DNA of 64,000 nucleotides from Candidatus Woesearchaeota archaeon (GCA_964367375.1 CAYIXG010000007.1:21530-85529), one strand, 5' to 3'. Shown: positions 1 through 58,653, counted from the first letter of the stretch. The notes: a model not told the origin generated them from the sequence alone. Program-made: numbers and translations.

Positions 1-1353
1 CGGGAGGCTGCTACTAATTTGTGGAGTGGTCAAAACGTGACAGTAGAAATTCGAGATGCAAACCCGGATTGTAGTGTGAATGAGAGGAATGGGTGTCATG
101 TGGTGCAAAATACAGTCCTTTCTCCGGGAGTAAAGGATTTTCCGCAGGGCATTTTCGTGATGAATGATAGTGTGATGTTAGATTGTAATGGTGCGGTGTT
201 GCAAGGATTTGGTTTTGGAATTGTTGATGATGGAATTAAGGTTGCAGGAAAAAGTGGGTTTACGGTGAGGAACTGCACAGTAAATAATTATAGGTATGGG
301 CTGGATATGGTGCAAGTGACAAATGCGATAGTCAGAGAAAGTGACTTTTCAAGTAACAAAGGGTACGGAATCAGGATGAGTAATAGCCATAGCAACATAA
401 TTGAGAAGAACAAGGTAAGGGAAAACAAGGATCCTCAAGGAGTAATAAGTAATGTCGATGCAAACGGAATGTATATGACATCCTCAAATAATAATGTGAT
501 TCGATGGAACCAAATAAACGCGAATGAGTTTAGGGGAATTCTCGTCGAATTTTCTGGAAATGGAAATGTGATAATGCAGAATAATATTGCTCATAATGGC
601 CAGGATGGAATACGATTTGTAAGTGGAGGAGCAAATAACATCATCAATAACAGCATCATAAATAATCAGTTAATTGCGAATGGTCAAAGAGGGATAAGGA
701 TGTTTAGCGGTGCTTCCGGAAATAGAATGGTGCTCAATAACTTTATCGGGAATGCATTTGCACCTCAGGCGACAGATACAGGAAGTCCTCCGAATGCGTG
801 GAATAATGCAAGCATTGGGAATTATTGGGATGATTATACAAGCTGCGTGGATGCAAATAATGATACAGTATGTGATTCGCCCTATGTCTTCCTGTCGTCC
901 GCAGATAATTTTCCTTCAGCTGTTCCAGTATCCTTCCCAATCGATCAACTGCCAAAAATAAAGCCAGTCATAACAATAATAGGAAGTCCACATCTGGGAA
1001 GTTCTGTGTCATTTGATGTGAAGCATGAAGGGTATTCCAATATTCTGTATGTTGTTGCGATGTCCTTAGGGAATACTCCGGGTATTCTGTTGCCGACAGG
1101 GGAAGTGGTGCCTTTAAATGATGACTTCTTGTTGCAGCTTGTGCTGAACACGCCCTGGGTAATAGGATTAAACAACACTATTGGATACTTGTCAAATCAA
1201 GGGAGTAATGCTGTGGGATGGAATATTCCTCTTGTGCCTGGAGCTGAGGGATTGACTGTTTATGGAGGGGTTGTCACAATTGATCCAGCAAATGCAGCAA
1301 ATCCCATAGCAGGTTTCTCTCAAGAGTTGCCAATCACGCTTCTTCCAGCGTAA
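1..1353 (+). CDS. Right-handed parallel beta-helix repeat protein (NosD/pectin-lyase-fold like), 5' end cut by window edge
   Basis: The frame is open from nt 1; the ORF track only starts at the first TTG, nt 19. Repeated ~22-aa units with Asn/Gly turns (GIRMSNSHSNIIEKNKV, GILVEFSGNGNVIMQNNIAHNGQDGIRF, NNSIINNQLIANGQRGIRMF). A C-terminal ~130-aa beta-rich domain is of unknown type. Confidence 0.6.
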   Translation, partial: REAATNLWSGQNVTVEIRDANPDCSVNERNGCHVVQNTVLSPGVKDFPQGIFVMNDSVMLDCNGAVLQGFGFGIVDDGIKVAGKSGFTVRNCTVNNYRYGLDMVQVTNAIVRESDFSSNKGYGIRMSNSHSNIIEKNKVRENKDPQGVISNVDANGMYMTSSNNNVIRWNQINANEFRGILVEFSGNGNVIMQNNIAHNGQDGIRFVSGGANNIINNSIINNQLIANGQRGIRMFSGASGNRMVLNNFIGNAFAPQATDTGSPPNAWNNASIGNYWDDYTSCVDANNDTVCDSPYVFLSSADNFPSAVPVSFPIDQLPKIKPVITIIGSPHLGSSVSFDVKHEGYSNILYVVAMSLGNTPGILLPTGEVVPLNDDFLLQLVLNTPWVIGLNNTIGYLSNQGSNAVGWNIPLVPGAEGLTVYGGVVTIDPANAANPIAGFSQELPITLLPA

Positions 1354-1426: not shown

Positions 1427-1434
1427 CTTTAAAG
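1427..1434 (+). promoter_or_regulatory. TATA-like box (CTTTAAAG) 23 nt upstream of the giant-gene start
   Basis: AT-rich box at the same spacing seen for other first genes in this window. A second candidate, GCTTAATAAAT, lies at ~1391. Confidence 0.35.
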
Positions 1435-1457
1435 AGGCTGGAAAAGGGGTTTGTTCC

Positions 1458-4400
1458 TTGTATAAGAAGTTCATTTACAAGAAAGGAAAGAGAATAGGAC
1501 CATACTTTTATGATAGTGTGCGGTTGAGGAATGGTCAAGTAAAGACAGTGTATCTGGGGAAAGATCCGGAAAAGGCACGAAGGCTTGCGCAGGAAAAGAA
1601 GGAAGTAAGGAAGGGGGGAAAAATTCGTTCGTTCAATGGAAGCATGCCTGCACAGGTGAAGCAAGTATCGAGAAGAGGTGTGGTGAGAATACAGCACGTG
1701 GAAGATGGGAGAATGCAAGGAAGTGTGCAGGGATATCTGCAGCAGCAAGCAAAGAGGGTAAAGCTGCCTGAAGGGTTTGGTCATCCGCCATTGTCATTTG
1801 TTGTGATTGTGCTTGTTCTTGTGGGGGCAGCGTTGTGGGTGTCTCCGCCAGGAGACGATGCAAGATCTTCATTGACAGGGTTTGTGGTGCAAGAACAGGA
1901 AGATAGTGCTAAAATTATTCAAAGGTTAGGGATTGCAGTGACTGAGGAGTCTGAGTTTATGGTTGACCTATCTCAGGTAGAGGAGCTCACTGCAGTGAAG
2001 ATTACAGGAGGTGTGATAGGAAAAGGGATTGCAAAAGTGCTGTTGCAGTCAGAGGATGAGGTGTATGTGGTGTATGATAATCAAGAGGTTTCTGGAAAAA
2101 TAGCAGAGCCATCGCCATTGACAGGATTTGTGGTTGCGAATCTTGCTCCAGTGAAGATTGTAACAAGTGGTGGAGAGCTGCCTGCGCAGTGGAGAGAGAC
2201 AGAGAAAGGTGTTGAAATCTCATTCCAGGCTGTGGTTGTGGAAAAGATTATAGTGCCAAAAGGGGCTGAAGGGAAGGTGTATTATGATGAGGGGTTAAAA
2301 GGGTTGGGTGACAGTTTTGGGAGGACATTTGCAGTGGATGCTGGTGAAGTAAATGACCTGTCAATAGTGGTGTCTCCGCCTCCTGAAGGTGTGACACGGC
2401 TGAAGAAGTGTGCGTTTTGGGACAAGGATTTGAAAATCTGCTTGGGAGAGTGGGTTGATGTGCGGGCAGTGAAGCCAGGAGAAGGGTATATGCTTCAGGG
2501 AGAAAAGAAAGCAGTGGGTTTTGCAGAGGTTGGAGGGCAGCCAGTAAAGACACAACAAAAAGAATTCATTGGAGAGAGTGAAAGCAAGGCGGCGAATAAA
2601 AAAGTGCAGGATGAACAGAAGCCGATGATTAATCGCATGACAGGAGACTTGGTGTATGAGGTGAATTTTACGTATGAGAAGGTGAGGAGTGCGTTTGCTG
2701 AGGCATGCAAAGAGACATGTAATCTAAAGCTTGTGCCAGGGGTGTATCGGTTGCGGGTGTTGGTGGATGAGGTGATTGTGGAATTGGAAGCTGTTGAACT
2801 TGCATTGAGGGGAGCGCAGGGTGCGAATGTATCGATCACGTATAAGGGTGTGGATGTCACGCAGCCAGAGGGTGGTGCAGATGTTCGTGCAAATCAGATA
2901 AGAGAGGAGGGGAAGCCAATAAGTGGGGAGGAAGGGTTGGAGAATGTGGTAGTAATTAATAGACCAGTGAAGTGGAAGCAGAGGGTGCAGCTGTCTCAGC
3001 CTGCGACGAATGTAAAGGTTGAGGTGCCGGAGGAGGCAGAAAATATCTCGGTGAAGAAGGTTGAGGGAGGTGTGGAGAAGGAAGTGAAGTTGTTTACAGT
3101 GGAGAATGCGCCGGCTGAGTTTTCTTTGGGAGCAGTGACTGGCGCTGCCATTGCTGATGTGGTGAGTGAGATTGCATCTGCAAATAATATAACAGTAACA
3201 ATTGAGGAGCAGGTGATAGAGGTGGTGGTTGAGTATGAGACAGCTCCTCCAGTATCATCAGAGGAGGAGGATGAGTTAGGAAAGAGGATTGTGATCTCTT
3301 CTCCCATACAGTATAGGAACGTGCTCGCGTATACATATATTGATGAGTATCCTCTGGAGTATCTGGAGTTTATTGCTCAGGAGTCTGGCATAAATGCAAC
3401 CTTCTTTGACACAAATAGCAACACGTTAGTAGATTATGTGGAGTGGCGTATTGATGAGGTGAGGTATAATGAGTTTGCTGTAAAATACAATGTGCCAAAT
3501 CACACGATTCAGCAGCATCCTGTTGACCCTCGTGCAGAAAGAACGGAGACCGAGACAAGAACGTGCATCAAGGGTGAGTGTGTGCACACCATCTTTACCG
3601 CGCCAACGTTTTTCAGGAAGGATGGGGAGTTTGAATATCTAGGAAATGCGCTGCAAGATAATTGCAATAATCTAAGTGATGTGTGTGTGCTTGGGGATGA
3701 TCATCAAGTGTATTTCCAGCGAAGGCCGCGAGGGGATGAGGTAGTGAAGGTTGTTCGTGAAGGAAAGAGTATTGCTCTCAACCCGTATCGGTTGGTGAAG
3801 CGAGGCCTGGGAGAGGATACAGTACTTTCGGGTGCAAACCCGGTGTTTGGTTGGGGGAAAGATAATAGGTATGAGTATAAGAATATGTTTGGGGAGAAAT
3901 CGGTGGCAAAGTATGCGTACATTATTACAGAGTTGAAGGAAGAGATCATGTTCGAAGAGGATGCGTTGCAATTGAGAGACAACCAGTCGGGTGGAGGGGA
4001 AATTGCTGTCGAGTTTAAGCTTGTGCTGGATAACGGAACAAGTCTCGTTATTGACGGTAAAAAGTATGATAGTTTGATAGGAACAGCAGTGAGAACAGAA
4101 AAGGAGATTGAAGTTCTTGATGAGCTTGATCAGGTGCTCTTTATACTTCCTCGGCCAGTGGCTCAGGACACCACTCGGGTGATTCCCTTAGAGTACAATG
4201 TGTACAAGGAAAATGAGTCCTTGATTATAGGTGTTATTGGTTCGGTTGAGGAATTAAGCTCGTTAGCGTATCCAATAACCATTGACCCAACAGTTAGTTT
4301 CGACTTTCGGGATATTGTATGGGATGGGCATATAGAGATAACTCCAGGATCTCCGTACACAAGAACAAACAATCCCACAGCTGTACTTCTGATAGGGTAT

Positions 4401-7400
4401 GACGGGCCAAATGATTTAACCTACCGTTCAGCGATTGAGTGGAACGTGTCAGGAGTACCAGCAAATGCGCAAATTGATGACATCAACTTTACTTTTTACG
4501 TTGAACAAAAAGGCACGGGAATGAATGATGTGGTGAACTTCTCGCAGATGGAGCAGAATAATGATTATTACGAGCCAGAAGATACGACGTTTTGTGGAAC
4601 AAACTGCCAGTTCAGTAGTGATATGGCAAATGGGACAGTTCTTGCGGATAACACAACACTTCAAAAATCCACATCTAATTCTATTAACATGTCGAGTGGC
4701 GGGTTGAGGGACTTAGAAGCGACATTAACATCCGGATTAACCTGGTGGGGAATAGGGTTGTTGTCTCCTGATGGAGAAGCGGCAGCAGACGCAGGAGCAA
4801 CCACGTCCCAAATTAGTCCTGCGAATGACGCAGTCGCTAGTCAGCGTCCAGAGTTGATTATAACGTACTCGCTCCTTGTTCCAAACATTACGTTAAACGC
4901 CCCGGATAACGCAACCACGCTAACAGTGAGGGGGAATATCACGCTTGATGTCACTCCGGAGGATAATGAGCCAACAATTGCGTTAGTGAAGATTTATGCG
5001 CAGAATGAGTCTGTGGGTGCTGAGGATTTGATTGCAGAATTCAGGAACACCACAAACAATACATTATTGTCATATAATTACACTGCTCCTGTATTGCGAT
5101 ATCATAACGTCCCAAATACGATATTATTACTTCACTTGAACAACCAGTCAGAGTTTAGTGAGAATGAAACAACGGTGGTTGATTTTGCAAATTCGACGAA
5201 TGGAGAGGTAAATGTGTTGAGTTTTTCACATAGTGCAGGAAAAATAGCAGGTGCATTTCAGCTGCTTGCAGATTCAACAGACGCGAATATTACATTTGCT
5301 GATAATGATAGTTTCATCGGAACAGACATTACATATGCAATGTGGGTGAATGCGACAGATACGAGTGCAATTACAAAGATTATTTTTGATAAGCTTTCAG
5401 GAGGGAATGGGTTTGGGATACAGCAGAATAGTGCTGATCTGAATCTGCTGTTAGATGCTGATACAACAACAGTGACAGGATTCTTCACAGCAAATGAGAT
5501 GACACATCTTGCAGTCTCTATTGATTCTGGTGGTGTGCCAAGAATATATAAGAATGGGCAGCTGATAACAGAAGGGCCTGCAGGTGCTGTAACGGATAAC
5601 GATGCAGCCTTTGCGTTGTTTGGAAAGACAGGAAGTAACAGTTTTGTAGGATCAATTGACGAGCTTATCATCATTGAGCGGATTCTGAATGATTCAGACA
5701 TCCAAGATTTGTATAGGTTGCCAGATACGCAAACGTATTATTGGAAGGCAGAGGTGTCTGATGCGACTCCAGATACGACAACGAGCGAAGAGCGTGTGTT
5801 CACCTTGTCTATTGGAAACACTGCTCCTTCAGTCGTTAGTATTAGCCTGAACGCGTCCTCGCAGTTTAATTTAACAACAGATGATTTGAACGTGTATTAT
5901 GAGACGTCTGAGATTGATGAGTTTGATGAGCGTTTGAACATTACGGATTGGCGTGTGAATGGAGAAAGTGTTGCGGTGGTGAATATGCCGTTTGAGACGA
6001 ATGAGAGTGAAACAACATACAATTTAGTCAATGATTATTCGACCTATGATAATAATGGGACAATCGGTGCGGGTGATCCGGAGATTGCTCCAGTGTGGGT
6101 GAGGGATTGTGTGGTGGGGAGTTGTTATGACTTTCCATATAATAAGAGTATTAATCTGGGGAATGCTCCGAGCTTAAACATTACGAATAACATCACAATC
6201 ATGTTTTGGATCAAGTTTAATGATCTCGAATATGCTTTAAACGCGTTTCCGAGAATCTTGGATAAGAATAGCGGGACAGCAGGATATGGGTGTTTTATTA
6301 ATAATGCCTCAAAAATAGTGTCATGCCAAGCGAGAAATGACAGTGCCTTCCAGATCGCAACGACTGATACGACTGCTGTTCCTGTGGATACATGGGTTCA
6401 CTTCGCAAGCTCTTACACGATGAATAACGGGTCTGATGGGTTGTTTAAGCTGTACAGGAACGGGACTGCAGTCCGAAACACCACTATACAGGTAGACACG
6501 GAAATTGGAAGAGGTGCGCTAAACTTGACTGTTGGAAGTAATGTTCCTGCTTCAGCGAGTGCAATCAACGCTTCCATTGATGAGCTGTACATTTTTGACA
6601 GGGTATTAACTGACGAGCAAATTGCTTATTATTATGAGAATATTACAAATATTTTGGATGATTCTATGACTGCAGGTGCAGATTCCTGGAGCGCGTGTGT
6701 CACGCCGCATGACAAGACAGTAACCAATGAGGAATTGTGCAGTAACAATGTAACAATTGAAGCAAGTTCATCACCGGATGCAACGTTAAACTATCCTGCA
6801 AATGATTCAAACTTTACGCATACAGGAAACTTCACGTTAAACGTGACGTATGTTGATCCCGATGGGGCAGCAGGAATAGTGCGCATCTTTGGAGGAAACG
6901 TGACTGATGGCCCTGGAAATGATCAGTTGTTGGCTGAGTTTGAGAGTGTGTCAAATGCGACAGATGTTATCTATAACTGGACGTCTCCAATTTTTACACC
7001 TTCTTCAGGCGAGAATCCGCAGTTTGTCTACAGGTTTGACTTGCGTGATGATCTGGGTGAGGATAATGGAACGATATATGATTATGTATCGAATGTTTTA
7101 AATGGAACGTTATGGGGGAGCACAACTGCAATGAATAGGTCTTCCAATAAAGTGCATGCAGGTTCGATAAAGTTTGATGGATCTGATGATTTTGTGGTTG
7201 TTGAGGGGTGCACAACACCATGTGCGGAGAAGAGGAATGCGACGTTTGCTGCGTGGGTGCTCGCAAATGCATTATCAGGAACTGAAGCAATCATAGGATC
7301 TTATGATTCAGCTGCAGCACAAGGATTTGTAATTGCGCGTGCAACAGGAAACCTTGCAGTTATTACAGATGCATCAACAGTGATAAGCACTTCTTTCTTC

Positions 7401-8837
7401 GCAGACACCACAACATGGTATCATCTTGCTGTGGTCACCTATGAAAATAACACAGTTGTCTTATATAGGGATGGAATGAACATTGCAGAAGGAACATTAG
7501 GAACAATTACTACAAGCGCAACAAGGAATTTCACGCTTGGTTCAGAAGCATTGAATGTAGCTTCTTATTTCTTTGAAGGGGAAATGGATGACTTCATGAT
7601 GTGGAATAGGTCTCTTGAGCCAAGAGAGATTGGAGAGCTTGTCAATGTATATAATGGAAAGTGGTATTGGAATGCATCAGTGAACAATTCTGCAAATGCA
7701 ACCGGTTCTGAATCATTTGAGTTCTTGTTGAATGATGTGCCAAGAGTTGATTCAGTTATTATTGGTCCAATGGCTGCAAATACGACAGATGACGTGAACT
7801 GCACAATTGTGGTGGATACGGATAGTTTGGCAAATGTAACCATTCAGGCTGCCTTTTTCCAGGAAGGATTATTTAATACTACAATAAGCGCGTTAACGCA
7901 GGTGGAAAATGGGACAGAAATTGCGGAAATTTTGAGTCCTGGAGGGTTGCAGGGAAAGCATCAGAATTGGAGTTGCATGGTGAACGTGACAGACGAGTAT
8001 GGGGTGGTGAGCACAGATGTGTTTTCAAGTAATGTAACGATTGTCAATTCGCCGCCAAGTGCTCCAACGTTGGAGAGTCCTGTAAATGAGAACAGGACTG
8101 ATGATGACACTCCTAACTTCACCTGGACGCCTTCTCATGATGCAGACAATGACACGATCACATACATTCTCAACATTACGTGCCTTTTGGAAACAGGAGG
8201 GTCATGTACACCAAGTGAAGAGATCATCATAGAGGGTATTACAAACTTGTCATATGTGTTGCCTGATGATCTGGATCATTTTGTTGATAATCTGCAGTAT
8301 TATAATTGGACTGTTCGCGCGATAGACGGAGATAATATTTCAGATGGGGATAATGCTTCCGAGATTGCAAGCCCTTCGTTTAACTTGTCTATCATTGCAG
8401 ATATTTCTATTAACATTACGAATGACACGGTAAATTTTGGCTCTTTGGCATTGGGTGTGACAAATACATCCGATCCTTTTATAGCGCCGTATTCATTTGG
8501 CATTCAGAATCTTGGGAATACGCCAGTCAACTTGACGATTGTATCTGATGACTTCCTATTCACTTCAAAGTCAAGCGCGTCTGCATATTATCAGTTTAAC
8601 GTGAGCGATGGGGAAGCAGTGTCAAATCCTTATTTGAGCGCAACGTCAACGTATGCAAATATGAATACTGTTACACAGACTGCAGTAACTCTATTTAATG
8701 ACACGAATCCTCTAGTGTATGTAAATATTAATATCACAACACCTGAAGATGAGCCTGCAGGTTCTCCATCTGCAGTGATCACGTTTACTGGAGTATTTAC
8801 ACCATTATCTGATGATAATGGAGGTAACCCAGATTAA
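1458..8837 (+). CDS. Giant (2,459 aa) single-pass surface protein with three LamG/concanavalin-A-like lectin modules
   Basis: Longest ORF in the window, with a TTG start. It has a basic N-terminus, one TM helix (PPLSFVVIVLVLVGAALWV) and a ~2,300-aa ectodomain. Three Laminin_G_3-type module ends are present (GSIDELIIIERILNDSDIQDLY, ASIDELYIFDRVLTDEQIAYYY, GEMDDFMMWNRSLEPREIGELV). I hand-counted roughly 70+ N-x-S/T sequons. Confidence 0.85.
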   Translation: MYKKFIYKKGKRIGPYFYDSVRLRNGQVKTVYLGKDPEKARRLAQEKKEVRKGGKIRSFNGSMPAQVKQVSRRGVVRIQHVEDGRMQGSVQGYLQQQAKRVKLPEGFGHPPLSFVVIVLVLVGAALWVSPPGDDARSSLTGFVVQEQEDSAKIIQRLGIAVTEESEFMVDLSQVEELTAVKITGGVIGKGIAKVLLQSEDEVYVVYDNQEVSGKIAEPSPLTGFVVANLAPVKIVTSGGELPAQWRETEKGVEISFQAVVVEKIIVPKGAEGKVYYDEGLKGLGDSFGRTFAVDAGEVNDLSIVVSPPPEGVTRLKKCAFWDKDLKICLGEWVDVRAVKPGEGYMLQGEKKAVGFAEVGGQPVKTQQKEFIGESESKAANKKVQDEQKPMINRMTGDLVYEVNFTYEKVRSAFAEACKETCNLKLVPGVYRLRVLVDEVIVELEAVELALRGAQGANVSITYKGVDVTQPEGGADVRANQIREEGKPISGEEGLENVVVINRPVKWKQRVQLSQPATNVKVEVPEEAENISVKKVEGGVEKEVKLFTVENAPAEFSLGAVTGAAIADVVSEIASANNITVTIEEQVIEVVVEYETAPPVSSEEEDELGKRIVISSPIQYRNVLAYTYIDEYPLEYLEFIAQESGINATFFDTNSNTLVDYVEWRIDEVRYNEFAVKYNVPNHTIQQHPVDPRAERTETETRTCIKGECVHTIFTAPTFFRKDGEFEYLGNALQDNCNNLSDVCVLGDDHQVYFQRRPRGDEVVKVVREGKSIALNPYRLVKRGLGEDTVLSGANPVFGWGKDNRYEYKNMFGEKSVAKYAYIITELKEEIMFEEDALQLRDNQSGGGEIAVEFKLVLDNGTSLVIDGKKYDSLIGTAVRTEKEIEVLDELDQVLFILPRPVAQDTTRVIPLEYNVYKENESLIIGVIGSVEELSSLAYPITIDPTVSFDFRDIVWDGHIEITPGSPYTRTNNPTAVLLIGYDGPNDLTYRSAIEWNVSGVPANAQIDDINFTFYVEQKGTGMNDVVNFSQMEQNNDYYEPEDTTFCGTNCQFSSDMANGTVLADNTTLQKSTSNSINMSSGGLRDLEATLTSGLTWWGIGLLSPDGEAAADAGATTSQISPANDAVASQRPELIITYSLLVPNITLNAPDNATTLTVRGNITLDVTPEDNEPTIALVKIYAQNESVGAEDLIAEFRNTTNNTLLSYNYTAPVLRYHNVPNTILLLHLNNQSEFSENETTVVDFANSTNGEVNVLSFSHSAGKIAGAFQLLADSTDANITFADNDSFIGTDITYAMWVNATDTSAITKIIFDKLSGGNGFGIQQNSADLNLLLDADTTTVTGFFTANEMTHLAVSIDSGGVPRIYKNGQLITEGPAGAVTDNDAAFALFGKTGSNSFVGSIDELIIIERILNDSDIQDLYRLPDTQTYYWKAEVSDATPDTTTSEERVFTLSIGNTAPSVVSISLNASSQFNLTTDDLNVYYETSEIDEFDERLNITDWRVNGESVAVVNMPFETNESETTYNLVNDYSTYDNNGTIGAGDPEIAPVWVRDCVVGSCYDFPYNKSINLGNAPSLNITNNITIMFWIKFNDLEYALNAFPRILDKNSGTAGYGCFINNASKIVSCQARNDSAFQIATTDTTAVPVDTWVHFASSYTMNNGSDGLFKLYRNGTAVRNTTIQVDTEIGRGALNLTVGSNVPASASAINASIDELYIFDRVLTDEQIAYYYENITNILDDSMTAGADSWSACVTPHDKTVTNEELCSNNVTIEASSSPDATLNYPANDSNFTHTGNFTLNVTYVDPDGAAGIVRIFGGNVTDGPGNDQLLAEFESVSNATDVIYNWTSPIFTPSSGENPQFVYRFDLRDDLGEDNGTIYDYVSNVLNGTLWGSTTAMNRSSNKVHAGSIKFDGSDDFVVVEGCTTPCAEKRNATFAAWVLANALSGTEAIIGSYDSAAAQGFVIARATGNLAVITDASTVISTSFFADTTTWYHLAVVTYENNTVVLYRDGMNIAEGTLGTITTSATRNFTLGSEALNVASYFFEGEMDDFMMWNRSLEPREIGELVNVYNGKWYWNASVNNSANATGSESFEFLLNDVPRVDSVIIGPMAANTTDDVNCTIVVDTDSLANVTIQAAFFQEGLFNTTISALTQVENGTEIAEILSPGGLQGKHQNWSCMVNVTDEYGVVSTDVFSSNVTIVNSPPSAPTLESPVNENRTDDDTPNFTWTPSHDADNDTITYILNITCLLETGGSCTPSEEIIIEGITNLSYVLPDDLDHFVDNLQYYNWTVRAIDGDNISDGDNASEIASPSFNLSIIADISINITNDTVNFGSLALGVTNTSDPFIAPYSFGIQNLGNTPVNLTIVSDDFLFTSKSSASAYYQFNVSDGEAVSNPYLSATSTYANMNTVTQTAVTLFNDTNPLVYVNINITTPEDEPAGSPSAVITFTGVFTPLSDDNGGNPD

Positions 8838-8844
8838 ACAGAAA

Positions 8845-10098
8845 ATGAAAAAAATAAACATATTAATGATTATATGGGTGTTTTTGCTAATGGGAATTGT
8901 GCAAGCAATTGGGGTCATGCCTGGCAATCAACCCTTTGAGTTTGATCCTGATAGCAAGTATGAGGGAAGAGTGCTTATTAGAAACACTGCAGGAGAAATG
9001 CGGGTGAGAGTAAGTGCAAGTGGTGAGCTTGCTCCCTATATGCATCTTGAAGTCTCTGAAATAATATTAAAGGAAGGTGAATCAAGGGAAGTAAAGTACA
9101 ATGTCGCTCTTCCAAAGAATGCAGAACCGCGAGTGTATCGGGGTCAAATTGTAGTTGCAGAAGTTCCTGAGGAAGAAGGCATTCCAAACAGGATCATTGC
9201 TGGAGTGAGTGTTGCTTCTGGAGTTGAAATTTTCTTGCAGCCTGTGGAAAACTATTTAGTGGTTCAAGAGTATAAGATTGATGTGCAGAATAGGGATGTC
9301 ACATTTGTTATTCCTGTGGTGAATAAAGGGTTTCTTGAGATGAGTGAGGTGAGTGCAGAAATTCAGGTGAATGATGAAAAGGGAAATAAGATAGATGTTC
9401 TCAAGACAAATACAGTGACTCTGCCTCCGAACGGAAATAAAGAGCTTGTTCTTCAGTGGAATGCAGACATGCCTCCCGGAATATATGCTGCAATCTTCAC
9501 TCCAATGGTTGGTGAGGAAAGAAAAGCGTCAGAAGAAAGGGAATTTTTCTTTAGGTCTCAGGAGATCTTGGAGGTGAAAGACATTATTCCTGATGAAAAT
9601 TTCATATTTGGGAGTCATGCACGGTTTAAGATCATTCTGCAGAATCATGCAGGAAGGCTTTTGGAGGGTGCTTTTATTGGTGTGGAGGTGTATGATAAGG
9701 AAGGAACTCGTGTTGCGCAGACAGAAACGCCGCGGCGGGATATTTCTGCATTTGAGGAAGTGGTGCAGGAAGTATTTTTTGACACGTTACCGTTACAAAA
9801 AGGCTCTTACAAAGTGCTGGTGAAGGTGCATCATTCAGGGATGGTGCATGAGGTGGAGATGAAAACAACATTAAGGGGAAAATCAATGAAAAGCACGGTT
9901 TTGTCAGGAATGGCTGCGTTAGAAACAGGTGGAAAACAAAAAAGAACAGTCTTTCTGTGGATACTGGGAATAATACTCTTAATAAATGGGATATGGTTGA
10001 TAAAGAGGAAAAGGGGAAGAAAAGAAAGGATTTTTTCAAATGAAAAAGATGGTTTCCAGAATACAAAAGAGGATTTCCAAGATGCAAAAGGTATATAA
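8845..10098 (+). CDS. Type-I membrane surface protein with CARDB/NEW3-like beta-sandwich domains (family member 1)
   Basis: The ATG lies 7 nt after the giant-gene stop. Signal peptide MKKINILMIIWVFLLMGIVQAIG; C-terminal TM VFLWILGIILLINGIWLI plus a basic tail. Strand-end motifs: RVYRGQIVVAEVP, PGIYAAIFTP, GSYKVLVKV. Confidence 0.65.
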   Translation: MKKINILMIIWVFLLMGIVQAIGVMPGNQPFEFDPDSKYEGRVLIRNTAGEMRVRVSASGELAPYMHLEVSEIILKEGESREVKYNVALPKNAEPRVYRGQIVVAEVPEEEGIPNRIIAGVSVASGVEIFLQPVENYLVVQEYKIDVQNRDVTFVIPVVNKGFLEMSEVSAEIQVNDEKGNKIDVLKTNTVTLPPNGNKELVLQWNADMPPGIYAAIFTPMVGEERKASEEREFFFRSQEILEVKDIIPDENFIFGSHARFKIILQNHAGRLLEGAFIGVEVYDKEGTRVAQTETPRRDISAFEEVVQEVFFDTLPLQKGSYKVLVKVHHSGMVHEVEMKTTLRGKSMKSTVLSGMAALETGGKQKRTVFLWILGIILLINGIWLIKRKRGRKERIFSNEKDGFQNTKEDFQDAKGI

Positions 10099-10114
10099 AG
10101 GAAAAAGGGTGTGT

Positions 10115-10348
10115 ATGAAGAGTATGGAAAAAGGGAGAAAAGAGGCTATTTCTAATAATATGTTACTGTTAGTGTTAGTAATCATCATTTTTGTTTCACT
10201 GCTCGGGACGCTGATGGTGCTGCAGCAGGTGGAAGATCATACTGAAGGAGTGAAGATAAGGCAAAGAAGCGTGGCAGAGAGTATTTCTGGAAGGGTAGCA
10301 ATAACAATTGTTCCGCTAGAAGAGGAAGAAAGGGGGAGTGAGGGATGA
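10115..10348 (+). CDS. Small single-pass membrane protein (77 aa)
   Basis: An internal ATG downstream of the previous stop gives MKSMEKGRKEAISNNMLLLVLVIIIFVSLLGTLMVL (one TM) with an acidic C-terminus. Its stop overlaps the next ATG (ATGA). Confidence 0.4.
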   Translation: MKSMEKGRKEAISNNMLLLVLVIIIFVSLLGTLMVLQQVEDHTEGVKIRQRSVAESISGRVAITIVPLEEEERGSEG

Positions 10349-10947
10349 GGCAGGTACCTGATAGGATGGTAACGATTGTGCTGATTATTGCAATAATAGT
10401 AGCAATAAGTGGTTTTGTGAATGTGGTGAATAAGGTGGGTGGTGATTTTTCACTCATTACAGGTTTCGCCACTTCCGGAACGGGTATTGTGAATGTGACT
10501 GTTGATGCAACTGCCGCAATTACATTAACAAACTCAACAGTAGAATTTGGAAACGGTGCAGTTACTGGAGGGGCAGTAGGAACGATTGTTAACACATCTG
10601 AGTGGGCTGGTCAGCCGAGCACGTTTGCGAATTCTGCTCCGATTACGGTGCAGAATGATGGGAATGTGGATGTGAATATTACTATTAATGGGACTCCTGT
10701 GGCAACCTTTTTGAATTCAAACTCGCAGTTTCAGTGGGCAGGTGCAACTGGGGAAGGAGGTTGTCCTGCTGCAAATCTCACCACAACATTGACGGAAATG
10801 GCTGCTGCTGCTGCGTACGTGTGTACAAATTTAACTTCTCTTGATTCTGCAGATCATTTTAATATTAACATTCAGGTGAATTTATCTTCTGATCTTCTTG
10901 CACAAACATATACTGCGGATGTGGAAATTGTAGCTGCTCAAGTATAA
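10345..10947 (+). CDS. Secreted/anchored 200-aa beta-rich protein with TGFATSGTG post-anchor motif
   Basis: ATGA overlap with the upstream gene. N-terminal hydrophobic segment MVTIVLIIAIIVAISGFV, followed by LITGFATSGTGIVNVTV. The mature part is rich in Thr/Asn/Gly/Ala with NxS/T sites. Confidence 0.6.
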   Translation: MRQVPDRMVTIVLIIAIIVAISGFVNVVNKVGGDFSLITGFATSGTGIVNVTVDATAAITLTNSTVEFGNGAVTGGAVGTIVNTSEWAGQPSTFANSAPITVQNDGNVDVNITINGTPVATFLNSNSQFQWAGATGEGGCPAANLTTTLTEMAAAAAYVCTNLTSLDSADHFNINIQVNLSSDLLAQTYTADVEIVAAQV

Positions 10948-10988
10948 AGCACCATATCTTTATATAAGAGAATAAGCATAAAAGACTG

Positions 10989-12173
10989 ATGAAAAAGAGG
11001 ATGTTCTGGATAGGAATATTCATTATAGGTTTTGTTTTGTTACAGGGTAAGACAAGCGAATCAGTAGGAATAAGCCCTCCGAGAATTGAGAGAGTGTTTT
11101 CACCAAATTTTGAGGAGAATATTACTGTTAATATCATTAATACTCGAGATGAGGAGGTGAATATGTTTGTGGGTGTTGATGGTGATATAAGCGATTTTAT
11201 AGGGGTGAGTGAGCAAGAGTTCAAGTTAGATGGAAGGCAGTCGAAGCCTGTTATTCTAAGCGTAAAATTGCCTGCAAAATTAAAGCCAGGGATTCATACA
11301 GTAAGCATTATTGCAAGGGAATTGCCAGTGGAAAAGAAATCAGGCATAACCGCATTTCCTTCAATAAAGGGGGAGTTGCGATTGGCAGTGCCGTATCCAG
11401 GAAAGTTCGTGGAATTGCAGGTTGAGGTGCAAAATAAGAATCGTGACGAGCCTATTGAAGTAAAAGTGCTTGCAAGTAATAGAGGAACAGATGAGGTAGG
11501 GGTCCTCAGGATAGAAGCAAGGGTGGTGGATGAGAAAGGAAAGTTCAAAGAGCAGGTGCAAACAACAAGGAGAAAAATAGGTGCAGAGAAAAATGAAGAA
11601 ATAAGTATTCTCTTAAGCGCTGAAAAATATGATGTGGGGATATACCATTTGTTTGTAAAGGGTGTGTACGATGGAATACAGACAGAAGAGATGGAAAGAG
11701 TGTTCCAGGTAGGGCACTTGTTTGTCAACATTGTAAATGTCACTTCCCTATTTAAAAAAGATAAGATTCAAAAGGTGAGCATTGAAGTGGAAAGTGGGTG
11801 GAATAACAGGATTGATGGCTTGTATGCAGAAATGGTGGTGTTCAAAGAAGGAAAGGAAATGAAAGAGGCTGTCAAGAGTCCTTCAGTGTCTATTGATCCG
11901 TGGGAGAGAAAAATAATTTCTTTTTTCTGGGATACATCGGGAATTGAGGAGGGAGTATACGAAGGTCAAGTAATATTGTATTATGATTCCAAGACAACAG
12001 TTAAAAAGTTTCCGTTGATCATTGAGGAAGAAAAAAAGGGTGTAAATGGAACTATAATGATGGTTATTCTAATTTGTGTGCTTCTCTTCTTTGATATGGT
12101 ATGGCTGAGAGGGGTGAAAAAAAAGGATGGGTGGGAAAAAGGGGGGAAAAATAGAACCGAGTACAAGCTATGA
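10989..12173 (+). CDS. Type-I membrane surface protein with beta-sandwich domains (family member 2)
   Basis: Signal peptide MKKRMFWIGIFIIGFVLLQG. Domain ends: PGIHTVSIIARELP, VGIYHLFVKGVYDG, GVYEGQVILYYD. C-terminal TM IMMVILICVLLFFDMVWL plus a basic tail. Confidence 0.65.
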   Translation: MKKRMFWIGIFIIGFVLLQGKTSESVGISPPRIERVFSPNFEENITVNIINTRDEEVNMFVGVDGDISDFIGVSEQEFKLDGRQSKPVILSVKLPAKLKPGIHTVSIIARELPVEKKSGITAFPSIKGELRLAVPYPGKFVELQVEVQNKNRDEPIEVKVLASNRGTDEVGVLRIEARVVDEKGKFKEQVQTTRRKIGAEKNEEISILLSAEKYDVGIYHLFVKGVYDGIQTEEMERVFQVGHLFVNIVNVTSLFKKDKIQKVSIEVESGWNNRIDGLYAEMVVFKEGKEMKEAVKSPSVSIDPWERKIISFFWDTSGIEEGVYEGQVILYYDSKTTVKKFPLIIEEEKKGVNGTIMMVILICVLLFFDMVWLRGVKKKDGWEKGGKNRTEYKL

Positions 12174-12574
12174 AAAAGAGAACAAAAGGTGTTGTGGTTG
12201 CTGTGCTGGGGATAGTAATAATAATTGGAGTGTGGTTTGTTGTGCCGATGAGAGTGATTGAAATGCCAGTAGTGATAACAGTTGGAGATCGAATAGGAAT
12301 TAATCTGGATAAGGATAAGGTGTATTTGGGAACAACTCCTCCAGGAACGCAAATTAAAAGGGGAATATCAATAGTAAGCGAGAAGGAAGGGAGGCTGTTT
12401 ATAGAAGTTGAGGGTATTACCTTTGTGAGTCCTGATAGAAAGAGAGTGGATGTTAAAGAAGGGGGTCAGGTGAGCGTGATGCTGGTCGCCGATGTTCCTG
12501 CAAATCAAGAATTAGGAATGTATGAAGGTAAAGTAAAGATTGTTGCGAAGAGGGTGTGGAAGGTATTGTCATGA
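12170..12574 (+). CDS. N-terminally anchored single beta-sandwich protein (134 aa)
   Basis: ATGA overlap with the upstream gene. TM GVVVAVLGIVIIIGVWFVV, then one domain ending in GMYEGKVKIVAKR. Confidence 0.6.
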   Translation: MKKRTKGVVVAVLGIVIIIGVWFVVPMRVIEMPVVITVGDRIGINLDKDKVYLGTTPPGTQIKRGISIVSEKEGRLFIEVEGITFVSPDRKRVDVKEGGQVSVMLVADVPANQELGMYEGKVKIVAKRVWKVLS

Positions 12575-13557
12575 ATCGAAGGGAAAAAAAGAAGCTAGCA
12601 AATAATCTGCTTTTGAGCATAGGAGTGATATTGATAGTGTGTGCCATCATTTTTTTTGGTGCAGTTATGATAAAAATAAAGGGGTTGACAGGGCAGGCAA
12701 CATCTGGTTCAGGGACAGTAAGCATAACTGTGGTGGCGGGAAATGAAACGCAAGTTGGAGCGCCGGCAGATAGTTCTCTGGGAGGGGCAAGAGGCGGAGG
12801 GATAGAAGGAGGGACATCTTTTGATGTGGTATCTTCATCCTATCAAGTGATGCTTATTGAAAAGAGTGAAGAGGAAAGGGAATTAAGGGTAAAAAATAGG
12901 GGAGATATCACCAATGAGTTTACAGTGTATACAAATAATGAGTTCATAAAGGTATTTCCAGCAGAGTTTTCGATCAGGCCAGGAGAAGAAAAGATTATTA
13001 CTATTGTTGTAAGAAGTGACAAGCCAGGAATTAGTGTAGGAAGGATTACAGTGAGTTCAAGATTTGGTGGTCAGAAAGAGATTCCAGTCATTATTAATGG
13101 AATATCAAGAGAGGTCTCATTCTCGCTTGAGGTAAATATTCCTGAGCAGTTTAAGGTGATTAGTCCTGAGGGTGAAATCTTGATGGATATATCTCTTGAG
13201 GGGCTGAAGGGAGGATATGTGGATATGAGTTATATCATCAAGGATGCCTCGAACCGTGGCATTTTCAGGGAAAATGAGCTGTTGCCGGTGAAAGAGTCGA
13301 TGAGCTTCCAAAAAACAGTAAAAGTGCCTCGTGAGCTAAAGCCAGGGTCGTATGTGATTGGAGTGCAGGTCAATTATAAGGGGCAGACGAAGGTTGCGAG
13401 CAGTTTTTTTACTGTTGCAAAAGATGCGCCAATAAAGGTTGAAGAGCCAACAGCAAAGAAGAACAATGGTGCGCTGATGTTGTTTGTGTTTATTGTTATT
13501 CTCTCTGGGTTGCATATCTTTTTTGCAAGGCAGAAAAAGGAAGAGGTTAAATTTTGA
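12571..13557 (+). CDS. Type-I/bitopic surface protein with beta-sandwich domains (family member 3)
   Basis: The ATG at 12571 overlaps the upstream stop (ATGA). N-terminal TM LLLSIGVILIVCAIIFFGAV, then LTGQATSGSGTVSITVV. Domain ends GISVGRITVSS and PGSYVIGVQVNYKG; C-terminal TM ALMLFVFIVILSGLHIFF plus a basic tail. Confidence 0.65.
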   Translation: MNRREKKKLANNLLLSIGVILIVCAIIFFGAVMIKIKGLTGQATSGSGTVSITVVAGNETQVGAPADSSLGGARGGGIEGGTSFDVVSSSYQVMLIEKSEEERELRVKNRGDITNEFTVYTNNEFIKVFPAEFSIRPGEEKIITIVVRSDKPGISVGRITVSSRFGGQKEIPVIINGISREVSFSLEVNIPEQFKVISPEGEILMDISLEGLKGGYVDMSYIIKDASNRGIFRENELLPVKESMSFQKTVKVPRELKPGSYVIGVQVNYKGQTKVASSFFTVAKDAPIKVEEPTAKKNNGALMLFVFIVILSGLHIFFARQKKEEVKF

Positions 13558-16500
13558 GGCTGATAACCTTGCTTACCCCATTCTCTTGCATGCTCACGCC
13601 ATAGATTTGGTCTGCTTCTGAGATGACAGAATCATTGTGAGAAATGAGGATATACTGTGCTGTTTGGGAGTATTGTTTGATAAGCTTGCTGAGAAGTTGG
13701 GAGTTGGTCTTGTCGAGTGCTGCATCGACCTCATCGAGGAGGTAGAAGGATTCTGGCTGGTGCTCTTGGATGGCAAAGATGAGCGCGAGTGCTGCAATGG
13801 TTTTTTCTCCGCCGCTGAGTGATTTGATGTCAAGGTGTTTATTTCCGATGATTTTGACCTGAATTTCAACGCCTCCTTGCAGGGGGTCTTCCTTGTTTTC
13901 GAGCACGAGGCTTGCCTCTCCCTTGGTGGAGAGTGAATTAAAGACGGTGGTGAGGTTTTTGTTGATAACGGTAAATGTCTTCATGAAGGTTCCTTTTTTC
14001 TTTTTCTCGATTTCATACATCATTTGAATGACTTGTTCTTTTTCTTCTTTGAGTTTTGCAACTTTTTCGAGGATGGCTTCATATTCTTTTTTGATGTTTT
14101 CATAGACCTCTAATGCTCTCAGGTTGACATTACCCATTTGGATCATGAGCTGTTCAAAGTGTTTTATCTCTTCTTTGAGCTTGTCGTGATCAATATTTTT
14201 TCTGAGTGGCGTTCCTTTGTATTCGTCAAATTCTTTTTCAAGCACGTCAAGTTCTGCATTAATTTTTGCTTTGACGATGGAAATCTCGTTCATTTTATTG
14301 TTCATGTCTTTTATTTTCGCTTCCTCAATAGTGATTGCTGCTTCAGATTTTTGAATTTCTTCGGTAAGCTTGTTCCTTTGGGTGAAAAGGTTTTTGTATG
14401 CTTGTTGGAATGCTTGTTCTTTCTTTTCGCTTTCTTTGAGTGAGGTTTGTTGTTGTTTTAAGAGGGTGTGAAGGTGCTCTTTCTCTTTGATGAATGAGGA
14501 GGTTTCTTTGTCATGCTCTTTAATGATCTCTTGTGTTTTGGTGAGCTCAGGATTGTAGATGTTCTGGATCTGAAGTGTAATATTTTTTAGATCTGTTTCT
14601 ATTTGGACGATTTCTGTGCGTGTGTTTTGGTGTTTGTGCTCGTGCTTTTCAAGTTCCTGCGTGTTTGCTTCTCCAGAAGTGTATTGTTTGCGTAATGTTT
14701 CCTTTTCTTTGCGGAGTTTGGAAACTTCTTTTTGAAGGGTAATGAGCTCTTTTTCCGCAGTGAAAAATGTCTGGTAAATAGTGTCTTTGTGGAGTGTTTC
14801 AATGTCTTGTTTGAGTTGTTTGATGCTTAAGCCTCCAGTTGTTGTCTCTATCTTAATCAGTTCTCCTTCGGAAGTGTTCTTTACTTTGAGGAGTTCATAG
14901 AGTTTCTTTTTGATTTCTTCTCTTCGTTTTTGGATGATAGTTTGTTTTTTTTCAAGTTCCACAAGTTCTTTCTCAATCTTTTCTTTGCTTCCGCTGACGT
15001 CTTTTTCTTGGAAAGAGAGACCAGGTCTCTTCATGCGATATCCGCCAACCATAGCTCCGCTCAGTTCGACCAGATCTCCATCAAGGGTTACCATTCTCAT
15101 TTTTCCGATGCCAACGTTTCGTGCTGTTGCAATGTCATCAACAACGATGGTGCCGCCGAAGAGGAAGGAGAATATATTCTTGAATGGAGGTTCAAATTGG
15201 ATGAGGTCGAGTGCAGAGCCATGAATGCCCTTGCCAGTCAGGCTAGGTGTTTGCTTTCCTTTGATTTTGTTGAGGGGAAGGAAGGTTGCGATGCCTATTT
15301 TTTCTTGTTTGAGGAGTGTAATGCAATCGGCAGCGATCTTGTCGTCTGCAACAACAATATTTTTCATGCGTGTTCCTGCAGCGACTTCTAATGCCAAAGA
15401 GTATCGGGGATCAACAGTGCCAAGTTGGTTAACAGTACCGTATACGCCTTGTTTGTGGAGATTGATGATTTTTTTTACTGCATGGTCTTCGAAGACGCTT
15501 TCCTTGATGCCGCTTTCTTTGGCGCGGAGTTGAAAGAGTTCTCTGTTTTTTCTGAGGATGTTGTCACTAATGGATTCAAGTTGAGTGTAAAGCGAATCCT
15601 CTTCAGCTTGGAGGGTTGCATGTTCTTTGTCGAATTTCTCGATGTCTTTGCGCGTTTTGTCAATGTTCATCTCTTTGTCGAGTGCTGTGAATCCTTTGAG
15701 CTTGTCTTGAAGAGATGCTATCTTTGCGTCAATGGAAAATTTCTTGTGAAGGATGTCTCGGTGTTTTTCCTGCGTGTGTGCGAAGCTTTTTTCAGCAACA
15801 TCAAGTTTCTGCTCAAGTGCATCAAGTTCTGAGTGTTCTCCAAGTCCTATTTGTTCGCGAAGGGTCTTGACGAGTGCTGCTTGTTTTTGTTCTTGTGTGG
15901 TGAGCTGTTGCAATTTCACGTGGAGCTCTTTTGTGTTTGTTTCAAGTCCTTTGATGGTGTGTTGCGTGTCTTGAATGGTGGTATACATCTGCTTTTTCCG
16001 TTCTTCAACGCGGGATATTTCATTTGCGACAGTATTGAATCGTTCGGTGTTGCGGACAATGTCTGTTTTGAGTGTTTCGATGTCTTTGTGGAGCATGACT
16101 GCTTCTTTTTCGCCTTTTGTTTCAATGTCTTGTTCGACTGTTTTGAGTTCGTCTTTTTTGTTTTGAATTTTTTGCTTCAGTTCAGTAATCTTATGTTCAG
16201 TGTGTTGGACAGCATCATTCTGGTTTTGAATTCTTTTTTCAACTGCGTCTTTCTTTTCTTGGTGGTCTTTCACTTGGTAGTGAAGGTATGTTGCCTTGTT
16301 GCTTTTGATGTTTTTTTCAAGCTCCTTGTACTTCATCGCTTGGTCTCTGTCTTTCTTAAGCTCGCGCAGGTACGCGTCTCGTTCGTTGAGGATAATGGAT
16401 GCCTCATTCATTTTTTCATCTACTTTAGTAAATTCATTCAGTGCTTTTGCTTTTCGTTCTTCAAATACGCCGATGCCTGATATGTCTTCGATGAGTTCGC

Positions 16501-54258: not shown

Positions 54259-55233
54259 CTATATCTGGAACAGCCCGCTGAGTAATCCTGCAATAAGGAA
54301 TTTGATGGTGAAGAAGAGGGTGATGGTGAGAATGATGAGGATAGGTAAGAATTTGAGTCCTTCTTTTTCGTTTCCTTTGGAAATAAGGCCAAGAATGAGT
54401 GATCCCATGATGGAAGTGATAATCATGGAGACAATGGTGTATGTGTTGACAAAGGTTGTGCTGACTGCAACTTGGCTGAAGCTGATGGGAATTTGGGTGC
54501 CAACTCCTTCTGTGGGTATTTCAACCTTGGAGAAAACATCTGTAATCACTTCGATCAGGAAAGAGCTTAAGCTGAAGAGCATGGGCGCTCCAAATCCGAT
54601 TGCAGAGAAGATAAAGATAACGTAAACCAATACGCTCGACCGAATGCGTTCGTCAACGAGTCGTTGTTGTCGTAAATTGGATGCGATGTGTTGGAGAAGA
54701 TCTGATATTTCTCCTCCTGCAGAAACTCCGGAGTTGATGAGTTGCACCGTTTTCGCCAGTTTTTCTGATCGGACGCGGCTGCCGAGTTCGAGGAGTGCAG
54801 CGTCAAGTTCTTTGCCGGTTGCAATTTCTTTCGCGACGTGGTTTATTTCGTCTTTGAATTGGCCAAACTCTGGTCGTGCAGCGAGGATGAATGCTCTATC
54901 AATGGTGTGTCCTGCGCGGAGGTTGGATGACATCAGTTGAAGTACATCCGGAAGAATAGATTCAACAAACCTTGCTTTTGCGTCTGCGCTGAGGACGAGA
55001 TACGCGTACACGCTTGATTGAATAAGTAGGAAAATGCCAATAACAAGAATGATGAAGCTGAAATCAATAAAGATGATGATAAAGAGAGATATGAGAAATG
55101 CAAGGATAAGAGAAACGATTAAAATGCTGAAGAGGTAGCGGTGCACGTCCATGTTGATTTTATTGTAGAAGAGGAGCTGTTCGAAGCTCTTGACCAGTTT
55201 TCTCGGATAGATGCGGGTGATGAATTCAATCAT
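54259..55233 (-). CDS. Pilus platform protein, single T2SSF domain (TadC/FlaJ C-half-like)
   Basis: N-terminal TMs, a cytoplasmic helical T2SSF domain (LPDVLQLMSSNLRAGHTIDRAF...INSGVSAGGEISDLL), then C-terminal TMs. Overlaps the upstream gene by 4 nt. Confidence 0.7.
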   Translation of the reverse strand: MIEFITRIYPRKLVKSFEQLLFYNKINMDVHRYLFSILIVSLILAFLISLFIIIFIDFSFIILVIGIFLLIQSSVYAYLVLSADAKARFVESILPDVLQLMSSNLRAGHTIDRAFILAARPEFGQFKDEINHVAKEIATGKELDAALLELGSRVRSEKLAKTVQLINSGVSAGGEISDLLQHIASNLRQQRLVDERIRSSVLVYVIFIFSAIGFGAPMLFSLSSFLIEVITDVFSKVEIPTEGVGTQIPISFSQVAVSTTFVNTYTIVSMIITSIMGSLILGLISKGNEKEGLKFLPILIILTITLFFTIKFLIAGLLSGLFQI

Positions 55234-58596: not shown

Positions 58597-58653
58597 GCGT
58601 GTATTATGGTTTATTAATTGTTGTTTTACTTTGATGATGGTTACATATCATGG

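Follow-up and report, generated by a model that had tools for sequence, protein, structure and literature searches.

A conserved DPANN gene cluster with a giant LamG protein and WxLIP-like membrane proteins resembles the Csc/WxL clusters of Firmicutes

Which proteins hold a giant LamG surface protein on the cell of a DPANN archaeon? Giant LamG proteins are the usual suspects for the attachment of these archaea to hosts or substrates, and the question is raised by a stretch of 64,000 nucleotides, here called the window, of a Candidatus Woesearchaeota archaeon (GCA_964367375.1, CAYIXG010000007.1:21530-85529). Positions 1458-13557 of the window are filled by seven open reading frames (ORFs) on the plus strand, G1 to G7, of which G1 encodes the giant, and all products are membrane or secreted proteins. 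The initial annotation had suggested a multi-subunit adhesion or envelope complex that could not be recognised as a named system. The second part of this statement has to be given up, since G2, G5 and G7 show homology to the WxLIP proteins of Firmicutes and both the composition and the gene order of the cluster mirror the Csc/WxL clusters of these bacteria. The first part is supported by the conserved gene order and by partners that are homologous to those of a proposed bacterial adhesion complex, as far as the sequences go. As argued in the following, the operon may well encode an archaeal Csc/WxL-like adhesin complex, which would be held at the membrane by cognate WxLIP-like anchors via strand complementation. 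In the naming used for the bacterial clusters, CscA is the WxLIP protein (DUF916-DUF3324), CscB the small WxL protein, CscC the large WxL protein and CscD a tiny LPXTG protein.

The first line of evidence comes from G2 (8845-10098, 417 aa) and G5 (10989-12173, 394 aa), which are full-length paralogues (BLASTP E 5e-11) and share the same build: their tandem beta-sandwich domains are preceded by a signal peptide and followed by a transmembrane (TM) helix and a basic tail at the C-terminus. A word-indexed k-mer search for homologues of G5 returned the query itself only. An exhaustive HMMER search with a profile of G2 and G5 resulted in 2530 representative clusters, 396 of them below 1e-30; the best 150 of the 2530 are almost all about 350-500 aa long and nearly all were matched over almost their full length, and the family members sampled were all hypothetical archaeal proteins. 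The Pfam family WxLIP_HBD (DUF3324) was matched by 31/64 family members (best E 6e-9) and WxLIP_PGBD (DUF916) by five, with G2 and G5 of the window themselves staying under the Pfam gathering thresholds (2.3e-5 for G2 against WxLIP_HBD). Moreover, WxLIP and WxL alignments, the latter comprising 13 sequences, were built from eight Firmicute plasmid loci (pXO1, Lactiplantibacillus, Pediococcus, Enterococcus, Listeria, B. thuringiensis). Against the WxLIP alignment, hhalign gave 96.5% and an E-value of 7.7e-10 for the G2/G5 family, over 196 columns across PGBD and HBD, and 96.7% and 3.9e-10 for the family of G7 (12571-13557, 328 aa), and the negative cross-controls resulted in 1% or less.

The structural comparison points in the same direction. 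The AlphaFold2 model of G5, with a predicted local distance difference test score (pLDDT) of 93.5, shows three beta-sandwich domains between a signal helix and a TM helix. Using this model in Foldseek, generic tandem ASH/MSP immunoglobulin-like (Ig) arrays rank first, and the solved WxLIP structures of Enterococcus faecium (9i25_C, described as bound to long WxL, and 9i1y) are found with E-values of 4e-10 to 1e-9. On this evidence, G2, G5 and G7 are remote members of the WxLIP/CscA (DUF916-DUF3324) superfamily, and with them a family of approximately 2500 representative clusters, its examined members all being unnamed hypotheticals, is placed in this superfamily. That three of the products end in a TM helix plus basic tail had been noticed before, and an analysis of hydrophobic segments assigns this end to G2, G5 and G7. 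Likewise, a similar last strand had been noticed in four of the small proteins; the homology of G2 and G5 supports this at BLASTP level, and for G6 and G7 it amounts to a distant relationship of Ig domains, seen as jackhmmer profile cross-matches of 1e-4 to 1e-16 that are not corrected for hydrophobic composition.

The second line of evidence is a domain common to the giant and to one of the small proteins. G1 (1458-8837) starts with a TTG codon and encodes 2459 aa, and its description as a LamG giant of this length was confirmed by Pfam, which finds three Laminin_G_3 domains (E 4e-51) at 5271-5702 (aa ~1272-1415), 6147-6626 (aa 1564-1723, the best stretch) and 7224-7631 (aa ~1923-2058). The N-terminus is cytoplasmic and basic and carries the motif LYKKFIxKKGKxIGPYFYxSxRLxxGxVKTVYLG upstream of the single TM segment at aa ~112-130; both the motif and the TTG start are kept in the orthologues. 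This region (1458-1770, aa 1-104) was compared in four relatives (L005, L006, L012, L018), in one of which (L012) the motif sits on a separate ORF of 57 aa; it may act as a sorting signal or as a cytoplasmic anchor. What the earlier account of the giant missed is the homology of its C-terminus to G4: the last ~170 aa (8325-8834, aa ~2290-2459), here called docking domain, are similar to G4 in an all-versus-all BLASTP comparison of the operon products (E 3e-5), they are matched by the hidden Markov model (HMM) of the G4 family at 1.8e-15, and a comparison of the G4 family with the family of large-protein C-termini by hhalign resulted in 99.7% and an E-value of 3.8e-25. The large orthologues vary in length between 454 and more than 3300 aa, and the C-terminal domain is the sole part that they have in common. 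Judged from these profiles, the C-terminal domain of G1 and the small protein G4 represent homologous copies of the same domain.

G4 itself (10345-10947, 200 aa) has a TM segment or a signal anchor at its N-terminus; the motif [LI]TG[FL]AT and the conserved strand TG(I/V)VNVT(I/V) come next and lead into a beta-sandwich domain of ~150 aa, in which two Cys residues are conserved. Its family comprises 50 DPANN proteins of ~210 aa, all of them unannotated, and 46 scanned members did not match any Pfam family at E-values up to 1. Searches of the PDB sequences with G4, with the G4 family and with the G2/G5 family revealed nothing significant. The AlphaFold2 model of G4 is confident (pLDDT 89.6), and its predicted fold is pilin-like and differs from the Ig domains of G2, G5, G6 and G7. 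G4 defines a new family of pilin-like proteins of ~210 aa that is absent from Pfam.

The third line of evidence is the conservation of the gene order. Loci were gathered from contigs encoding G4 relatives and by scanning GTDB genomes with a tight G4 alignment, and all ORFs of these loci were searched with the family HMMs. The recurring order is a large protein with C-terminal G4-like domain, a G2-type protein, G3, G4, a G5-type protein, G6 and G7, with sizes after the large protein of ~410, ~70, ~215, ~390, ~135 and ~325 aa. It is complete through G7 in L005, L006, L011, L012, L014, L015, L016, L018 and L021 and kept up to the contig end in L010 and L020; in L022 a G7-like gene is displaced from G6, and L028 has the order through G6 with no G7 detected. 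Loci with the seven-gene order belong to Woesearchaeota and Nanoarchaeia, and variants lacking the last gene (G7) were found in Pacearchaeota (L026), Aenigmatarchaeota (L023) and in bins labelled Methanosarcinales (L025, L027). Twenty-four non-redundant loci carry a small gene of the G4 type; in 21 of them a G5-type gene follows directly downstream and in 20 G3 lies directly upstream. Where this is not the case, the locus runs into a contig end or is interrupted by a transposase. In the latter case (L007), a DDE transposase gene (10749-11573) is located immediately after the G4 gene and breaks the module; an archaeosortase-like gene (Exosortase_EpsH, 16008-16526) is found 5 kb downstream in the same locus. 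Minimal modules G3-G4-G5-G6 occur without a giant (L008, L009, L017), L015 has two copies of G4, and the Pacearchaeota locus (L026, 4587-7665) encodes four tandem G4 paralogues and two G3 paralogues with a single downstream G5-type gene. The recurrence of the gene order in related archaeal metagenome-assembled genomes (MAGs), which had been put forward as a check, is thereby confirmed for 11 or more independent DPANN loci, in which the order is kept at 30-45% protein identity.

Part of this conservation is simply genome collinearity, since in the closest relatives also the flanking SMC and beta-helix genes are syntenic. This bears on the possibility that the seven genes encode co-located and functionally independent envelope proteins, for example of an S-layer or of a pseudo-periplasmic type, and that synteny reflects shared regulation or genome conservation; the generic nature of all the Ig-like folds would also fit. 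However, in the distant loci L008, L009 and L025-L030 the module is kept while its flanks are wholly different, which argues against mere collinearity of the genomes. Moreover, the overlapping ATGA junctions are kept in the relatives, and the domain shared by G1 and G4 as well as the grouping of the WxLIP-like proteins described below would be hard to explain without interaction. Independence of the products is thus considered improbable.

The fourth line of evidence is the pairing of docking-domain proteins with WxLIP-like proteins. Three loci retrieved via the G5 family alone (L028, L029, L030) all encode a protein with a C-terminal G4-like domain upstream, which adjoins the WxLIP-like gene in L028 and L029 and is separated from it by one inserted gene in L030; L029 consists of the pair of giant and WxLIP-like protein alone. 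In a neighbour-joining tree of all WxLIP-like proteins, those encoded after a large protein, including the ones from pair-only loci, split almost cleanly from those encoded after a small one, with G2 in the former clade and G5 in the latter. Such an almost clean split is the pattern expected of co-evolving binding partners. It points to G2 as the cognate partner of the large protein and to G5 as the cognate partner of G4, and the minimal two-gene unit of a large protein with docking domain and its WxLIP-like protein would offer concrete binding pairs.

These features can be compared with those of the bacterial system. A Firmicute cluster contains one WxLIP together with two kinds of protein that bear the WxL domain: a small one, present in one to four copies and made up of this domain alone, and a large one that ends in it and whose N-terminal domains are variable and often lectin-like. 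Usually a tiny LPXTG protein is encoded as well (PMC1534035, PMC9772566, PMC10599100). The CscC proteins have concanavalin A-like lectin domains, too, and CscD is defined by its size and anchor only (PMC1534035). In the archaeal cluster, G2, G5 and G7 are the tandem-Ig membrane proteins with C-terminal TM helix, related to WxLIP by profile and by fold; G4 is the small domain-only protein, likewise found in one to four copies; G1 is the large protein with a variable lectin-bearing N-terminal part, ending in the same domain as the small protein; and G3 would be the counterpart of the tiny anchored protein, with all products being extracytoplasmic. Even the order large, tiny, small, WxLIP is the same in the Listeria lmo0549-type locus (L038) and, with three small WxL genes, in the E. 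innesii locus (L037), the archaeal module having an extra WxLIP-like gene, G2, after the large one. On pXO1 of B. anthracis (L032) two tiny TM proteins, a small WxL protein and WxLIP follow each other. The two tiny proteins form a near-identical pair of 67-68 aa with a single TM (27389-27871) in the position that G3 has relative to G4 and G5; approximately 2 kb past the WxLIP gene of pXO1 are unannotated and may be a decayed large WxL gene.

There are also clear differences. The archaeal clusters encode three WxLIP-like proteins, i.e., members of the two cognate clades and G7, compared to one in bacteria, and G2 and G5 have three Ig domains and the bacterial WxLIP two. The archaeal proteins are anchored by TM helices, the bacterial ones via LPXTG/sortase and binding to peptidoglycan, and the giants can exceed 3000 aa. 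G3 agrees with CscD in position and size, but it is TM-anchored, has no LPXTG motif and shows no sequence relation. Peptidoglycan synthesis is not known from DPANN archaea, and it is therefore unlikely that peptidoglycan binding of the WxL/PGBD type is conserved in these hosts. G1 resembles the other giant surface proteins with LamG or concanavalin-like domains in DPANN and candidate phyla radiation (CPR) organisms by its length of more than 2000 aa, its three Laminin_G_3 domains and its many sequons; it differs in that its C-terminus is a defined, conserved module and that the gene directly downstream encodes its cognate membrane partner.

Based on the analogy to the bacterial proteins, the following mechanism can be proposed. 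Two proteins, G1 and the domain-only putative glycoprotein G4, carry the same beta-sandwich domain of ~150-170 aa, which would serve for docking. The variable LamG-bearing N-terminal part of G1 would be displayed outward as the adhesive or exposed portion facing a presumed host or substrate. Each docking-domain protein would be paired with its own WxLIP-type anchor, G2 for G1 and G5 for G4, made of tandem Ig-like domains and held in the cytoplasmic membrane by its C-terminal TM helix and basic tail. For bacteria, AlphaFold2 predicts that a strand of WxLIP completes the incomplete sandwich of WxL beside the N-terminal strand of the latter (PMC10599100), and a crystal structure of a WxLIP-WxL complex has been deposited (9i25). 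By analogy, the archaeal WxLIP-like protein would insert a beta-strand into the incomplete docking sandwich and thereby tether the adhesin non-covalently to the cell membrane, a tether that would replace wall binding in an organism without peptidoglycan or sortase. G3 with its TM and single strand, G6 with its TM and PapD-like Ig domain and G7, combining a WxLIP-like part with a G4-type strand, may represent further anchored subunits of the complex. The distribution of N-x-S/T sequons, with 89 in the long ectodomain of G1, eight per 200 aa in G4, four in G5, one in G7 and none in G2, G3 and G6, fits exposed and possibly glycosylated cargo (G1 and G4) versus membrane-proximal holders. Whether the cluster is devoid of chaperones, as had been stated, becomes uncertain, since the bacterial WxLIP binds WxL in a crystallised complex and its strand is predicted to complete the WxL sandwich, a role akin to that of a chaperone or an anchor.

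Several observations weigh against this reading. The archaeal docking domain is not a WxL domain: Pfam WxL (PF13731) was found in 0/46 scanned G4-family members at E-values up to 1, the family shows neither a conserved Trp nor a Trp-x-Leu motif, and comparison of G4 and of the G1 C-terminus with the WxL alignment by hhalign, local and global, resulted in 1.1% at most. The identity of the two domains was rejected on these three grounds, and homology to the described bacterial system is thus demonstrable for one component class only, while the docked domain and the mode of anchoring differ. Moreover, no chain of 9i25 is present among the best 50 listed structural neighbours of G4. When the PDB sequences were searched with a small WxL protein, the WxL chain of 9i25 was not recovered. 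G1 and G4 furthermore have long N-terminal TM segments, which would make a separate anchor superfluous unless they are cleaved off. Finally, the function of the bacterial WxL clusters has itself been established only in part.

The best surviving alternative starts from the fold of G4 and from its N-terminal strand, and it also concerns the remaining small proteins. G3 (10115-10348, 77 aa) has an N-terminal TM, a linker of ~25 aa and one conserved strand motif, G-x-V-S/A-L/I-T-I-x-P, with ~40 residues beyond the TM; 20 orthologues of 63-104 aa, counted from the first start codon, are encoded directly upstream of G4 homologues. G6 (12170-12574, 134 aa) has an N-terminal TM and one ASH/PapD-like Ig domain. 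Among its 18 orthologues one passes the Pfam ASH threshold and others have weak HYDIN, Cep192 or PapD-like matches, and its iterated jackhmmer profile matches G2 at 3.5e-16, an E-value not corrected for composition. G7 starts with a TM and a strand (GTVSITVV); a linker rich in Gly and Glu leads to two Ig domains, and a second TM with a basic tail forms the C-terminus. Having a TM at both ends, it is not strictly single-pass unless processed, and the description of the six small products as single-pass or secreted proteins applies to G2-G6. Weak ASH or PapD-like Ig matches were obtained for both G6 and G7, and the N-terminal ~55 residues of G7 resemble those of G4 (BLASTP E 3.6e-4). A strand motif G-x-V-x-[LIV]-[TS]-[IV] just past the TM is common to G4, G3 and G7, strands resembling that of G4 reading GxVSLTILP and GTVSITIL after the TM of G3 and G7.

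In this alternative, G4 would be the subunit of a pilus formed by usher-less, chaperone-assisted donor-strand exchange, polymerising head-to-tail via its N-terminal strand into a glycosylated fibre. G1 would act as tip adhesin whose C-terminal pilin domain accepts the strand of the first G4, and G3 and/or G7 would serve as plug of the last subunit and as anchor of the fibre. The role left for G2 and G5 would be that of membrane-tethered chaperones, which cap the grooves before assembly. Many of the top PDB neighbours of G4 among the best 50 listed by Foldseek are indeed donor-strand-exchange subunits (pond fibril TLP-1a, the cannulae Hyper2 and CanA, FimG, FimA, PapA, CsuA/B), with probabilities up to 1.00; however, the scores are weak, with E-values of 3e-3 to 0.1 and TM-scores of 0.57 at most. 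The conserved N-terminal strand of G4 is not assigned as beta-strand in the AlphaFold2 monomer model, and in G3 the corresponding strand makes up essentially the entire ectodomain, both of which count in favour of the alternative. The large proteins, however, bear a homologous strand in cis, immediately before the docking domain, and the strand is therefore no proof of strand exchange and may simply be strand A of the fold. The tandem G4 genes next to a single G5 (four in L026, two in L015) would resemble major and minor pilins, and the existence of giant-less G3-G4-G5-G6 modules would also fit. In addition, G4 is sequon-rich, as are the glycosylated archaeal threads (PMC9715654), and its LTG-type motif just before the strand could, as we infer, be a signal peptidase I site that frees the N-terminal extension.

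Among known structures, fibres of the donor-strand type (Sulfolobus threads, Pyrobaculum archaeal bundling pili (ABP) and TasA-like fibres, Pyrodictium cannulae, chaperone-usher pili, TLP-1) come closest to the predicted fold of G4, which shares with them a conserved N-terminal strand with alternating hydrophobic residues and a heavy potential for N-glycosylation. G3, having a strand without acceptor domain, is reminiscent of the proposed cap Saci_0405 or of TapA-type initiators (PMC9715654). However, the module has no sequence similarity to any of these fibres and no usher, and its partners are WxLIP-like instead of two-domain chaperones of the PapD type: Pfam and NCBIfam scans found no match to usher, PapD_N/PapD_C or Peptidase_M73 in any operon product. 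Membership of the TasA/camelysin family was rejected because of the missing Peptidase_M73 match. No dedicated assembly proteins are known for the archaeal threads and cannulae; the module, in contrast, encodes a fixed set of five partners. The one-to-one pairing of the WxLIP-like clades, furthermore, suggests stoichiometric complexes rather than catalytic chaperones, and polymerisation is unreported for the homologous bacterial system. Taken together, a G4 pilus is regarded as rather unlikely, and the same doubt applies to the claim that an archaeal donor-strand-exchange pilus, with a giant LamG tip and the TM-tethered strand donors G3 and G7 starting or terminating the fibre, would here for the first time have an assembly system of its own.

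A type IV pilus-like adhesion filament with class III signal peptides is highly improbable and was rejected. In its favour, the N-terminus of several products is short and charged and runs into a long hydrophobic helix, G4 has a marginal prepilin match in NCBIfam (E 0.12) and a T2SSE-type ATPase is encoded elsewhere in the window. However, this gene lies more than 40 kb from the operon, no ATPase, platform protein (PilC) or prepilin peptidase is found in or beside the gathered clusters, the G3, G4, G6 and G7 families either lack the [KR]-[GA] cleavage motif or do not conserve it, and the globular fold of G4 is that of a donor-strand-type pilin instead of an alpha/beta type IV pilin. The ATPase gene (e.g., 56102-57604, type II/IV secretion or archaellum/pilus) belongs to a same-strand run of genes at 54259-60545 (minus strand). 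This run may encode a type IV filament, and nothing in the data connects it with the operon.

The tight packing of seven genes on one strand, as initially described, was borne out by the ORF calls: G2 follows G1 after 7 nt and G3 follows G2 after 16 nt, ATGA overlaps join G3 to G4, G5 to G6 and G6 to G7, and 41 nt lie between G4 and G5. The genes are probably co-transcribed. The proposed operon start at 1427 had to be corrected, as it falls in the promoter region and the first ORF begins at 1458; for G2 an alternative open ATG exists further upstream at 8812, and the starts chosen for G2 and G3 agree with the N-termini of the orthologues. Within the operon products no enzyme, ATPase or secretion component was found by Pfam, in agreement with the initial annotation. 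The gap between G4 and G5 (10948-10988) is the sole sizeable one inside the operon and contains TTTATATAA approximately 25-35 nt before the ATG of G5, a possible internal archaeal TATA box. A scan for sigma-70 promoters and terminators gave results at chance level, this consensus type being uninformative for an archaeon.

The closest relatives of the window are MAGs labelled Candidatus Woesearchaeota or Nanoarchaeia; the window itself is derived from a 215-kb contig of Hainich groundwater (ENA ERZ1292627, well H51, 0.1-um fraction). Upstream of the operon, G0 (19-1353, plus strand) encodes a right-handed beta-helix (NosD-like) surface protein with matches to Pfam Beta_helix and NosD. It is truncated by the start of the window, measures 905 aa on the full contig and adjoins the operon only in the closest relatives (L005, L006), i.e., it is a neighbour and not a core member. 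At the other side, a convergent SMC gene overlaps the 3' end of G7. The SMC protein of the window has 1142 aa; its orthologue in L005 (13212-18257, minus strand) has 1681 aa and contains an intein (Intein_splicing and LAGLIDADG_3) that is absent from the former. Further away, another candidate surface protein outside the operon is encoded at 40194-42074 (plus strand); it has 626 aa, looks secreted and gives Ig-like matches to MG2 and Big_13. Two paralogous proteins of 645 aa and 664 aa without Pfam match (32156-34093, plus strand; 23862-25859, minus strand) have the internal motif (I/V)TGL(A/V)ALTGFQTKEPG..KEPGK in common. The GC skew, (G-C)/(G+C), is positive (0.11-0.43) in all 2-kb bins of the window (1-64000) and its sign is independent of the gene strand, an unusually strong and uniform asymmetry.

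In the literature, no prior description was found of a link between DPANN archaea and WxL/WxLIP, of a link between DPANN archaea and donor strands, or of this module. The module bears on how the giant LamG proteins of DPANN archaea are held on the cell, and it would extend the WxLIP/Csc system to archaea without peptidoglycan; previous descriptions of this system come almost exclusively from Lactobacillales and Bacillales, where it has been understood in terms of peptidoglycan binding. If the reading as a membrane-held adhesin complex is true, the conserved core function of the system would be protein-protein strand complementation and not wall binding. If instead the pilus existed, Firmicute WxL clusters might by homology also be strand-exchange assemblies and not static wall-bound platforms, and DPANN archaea would have a defined organelle for the attachment to their hosts.

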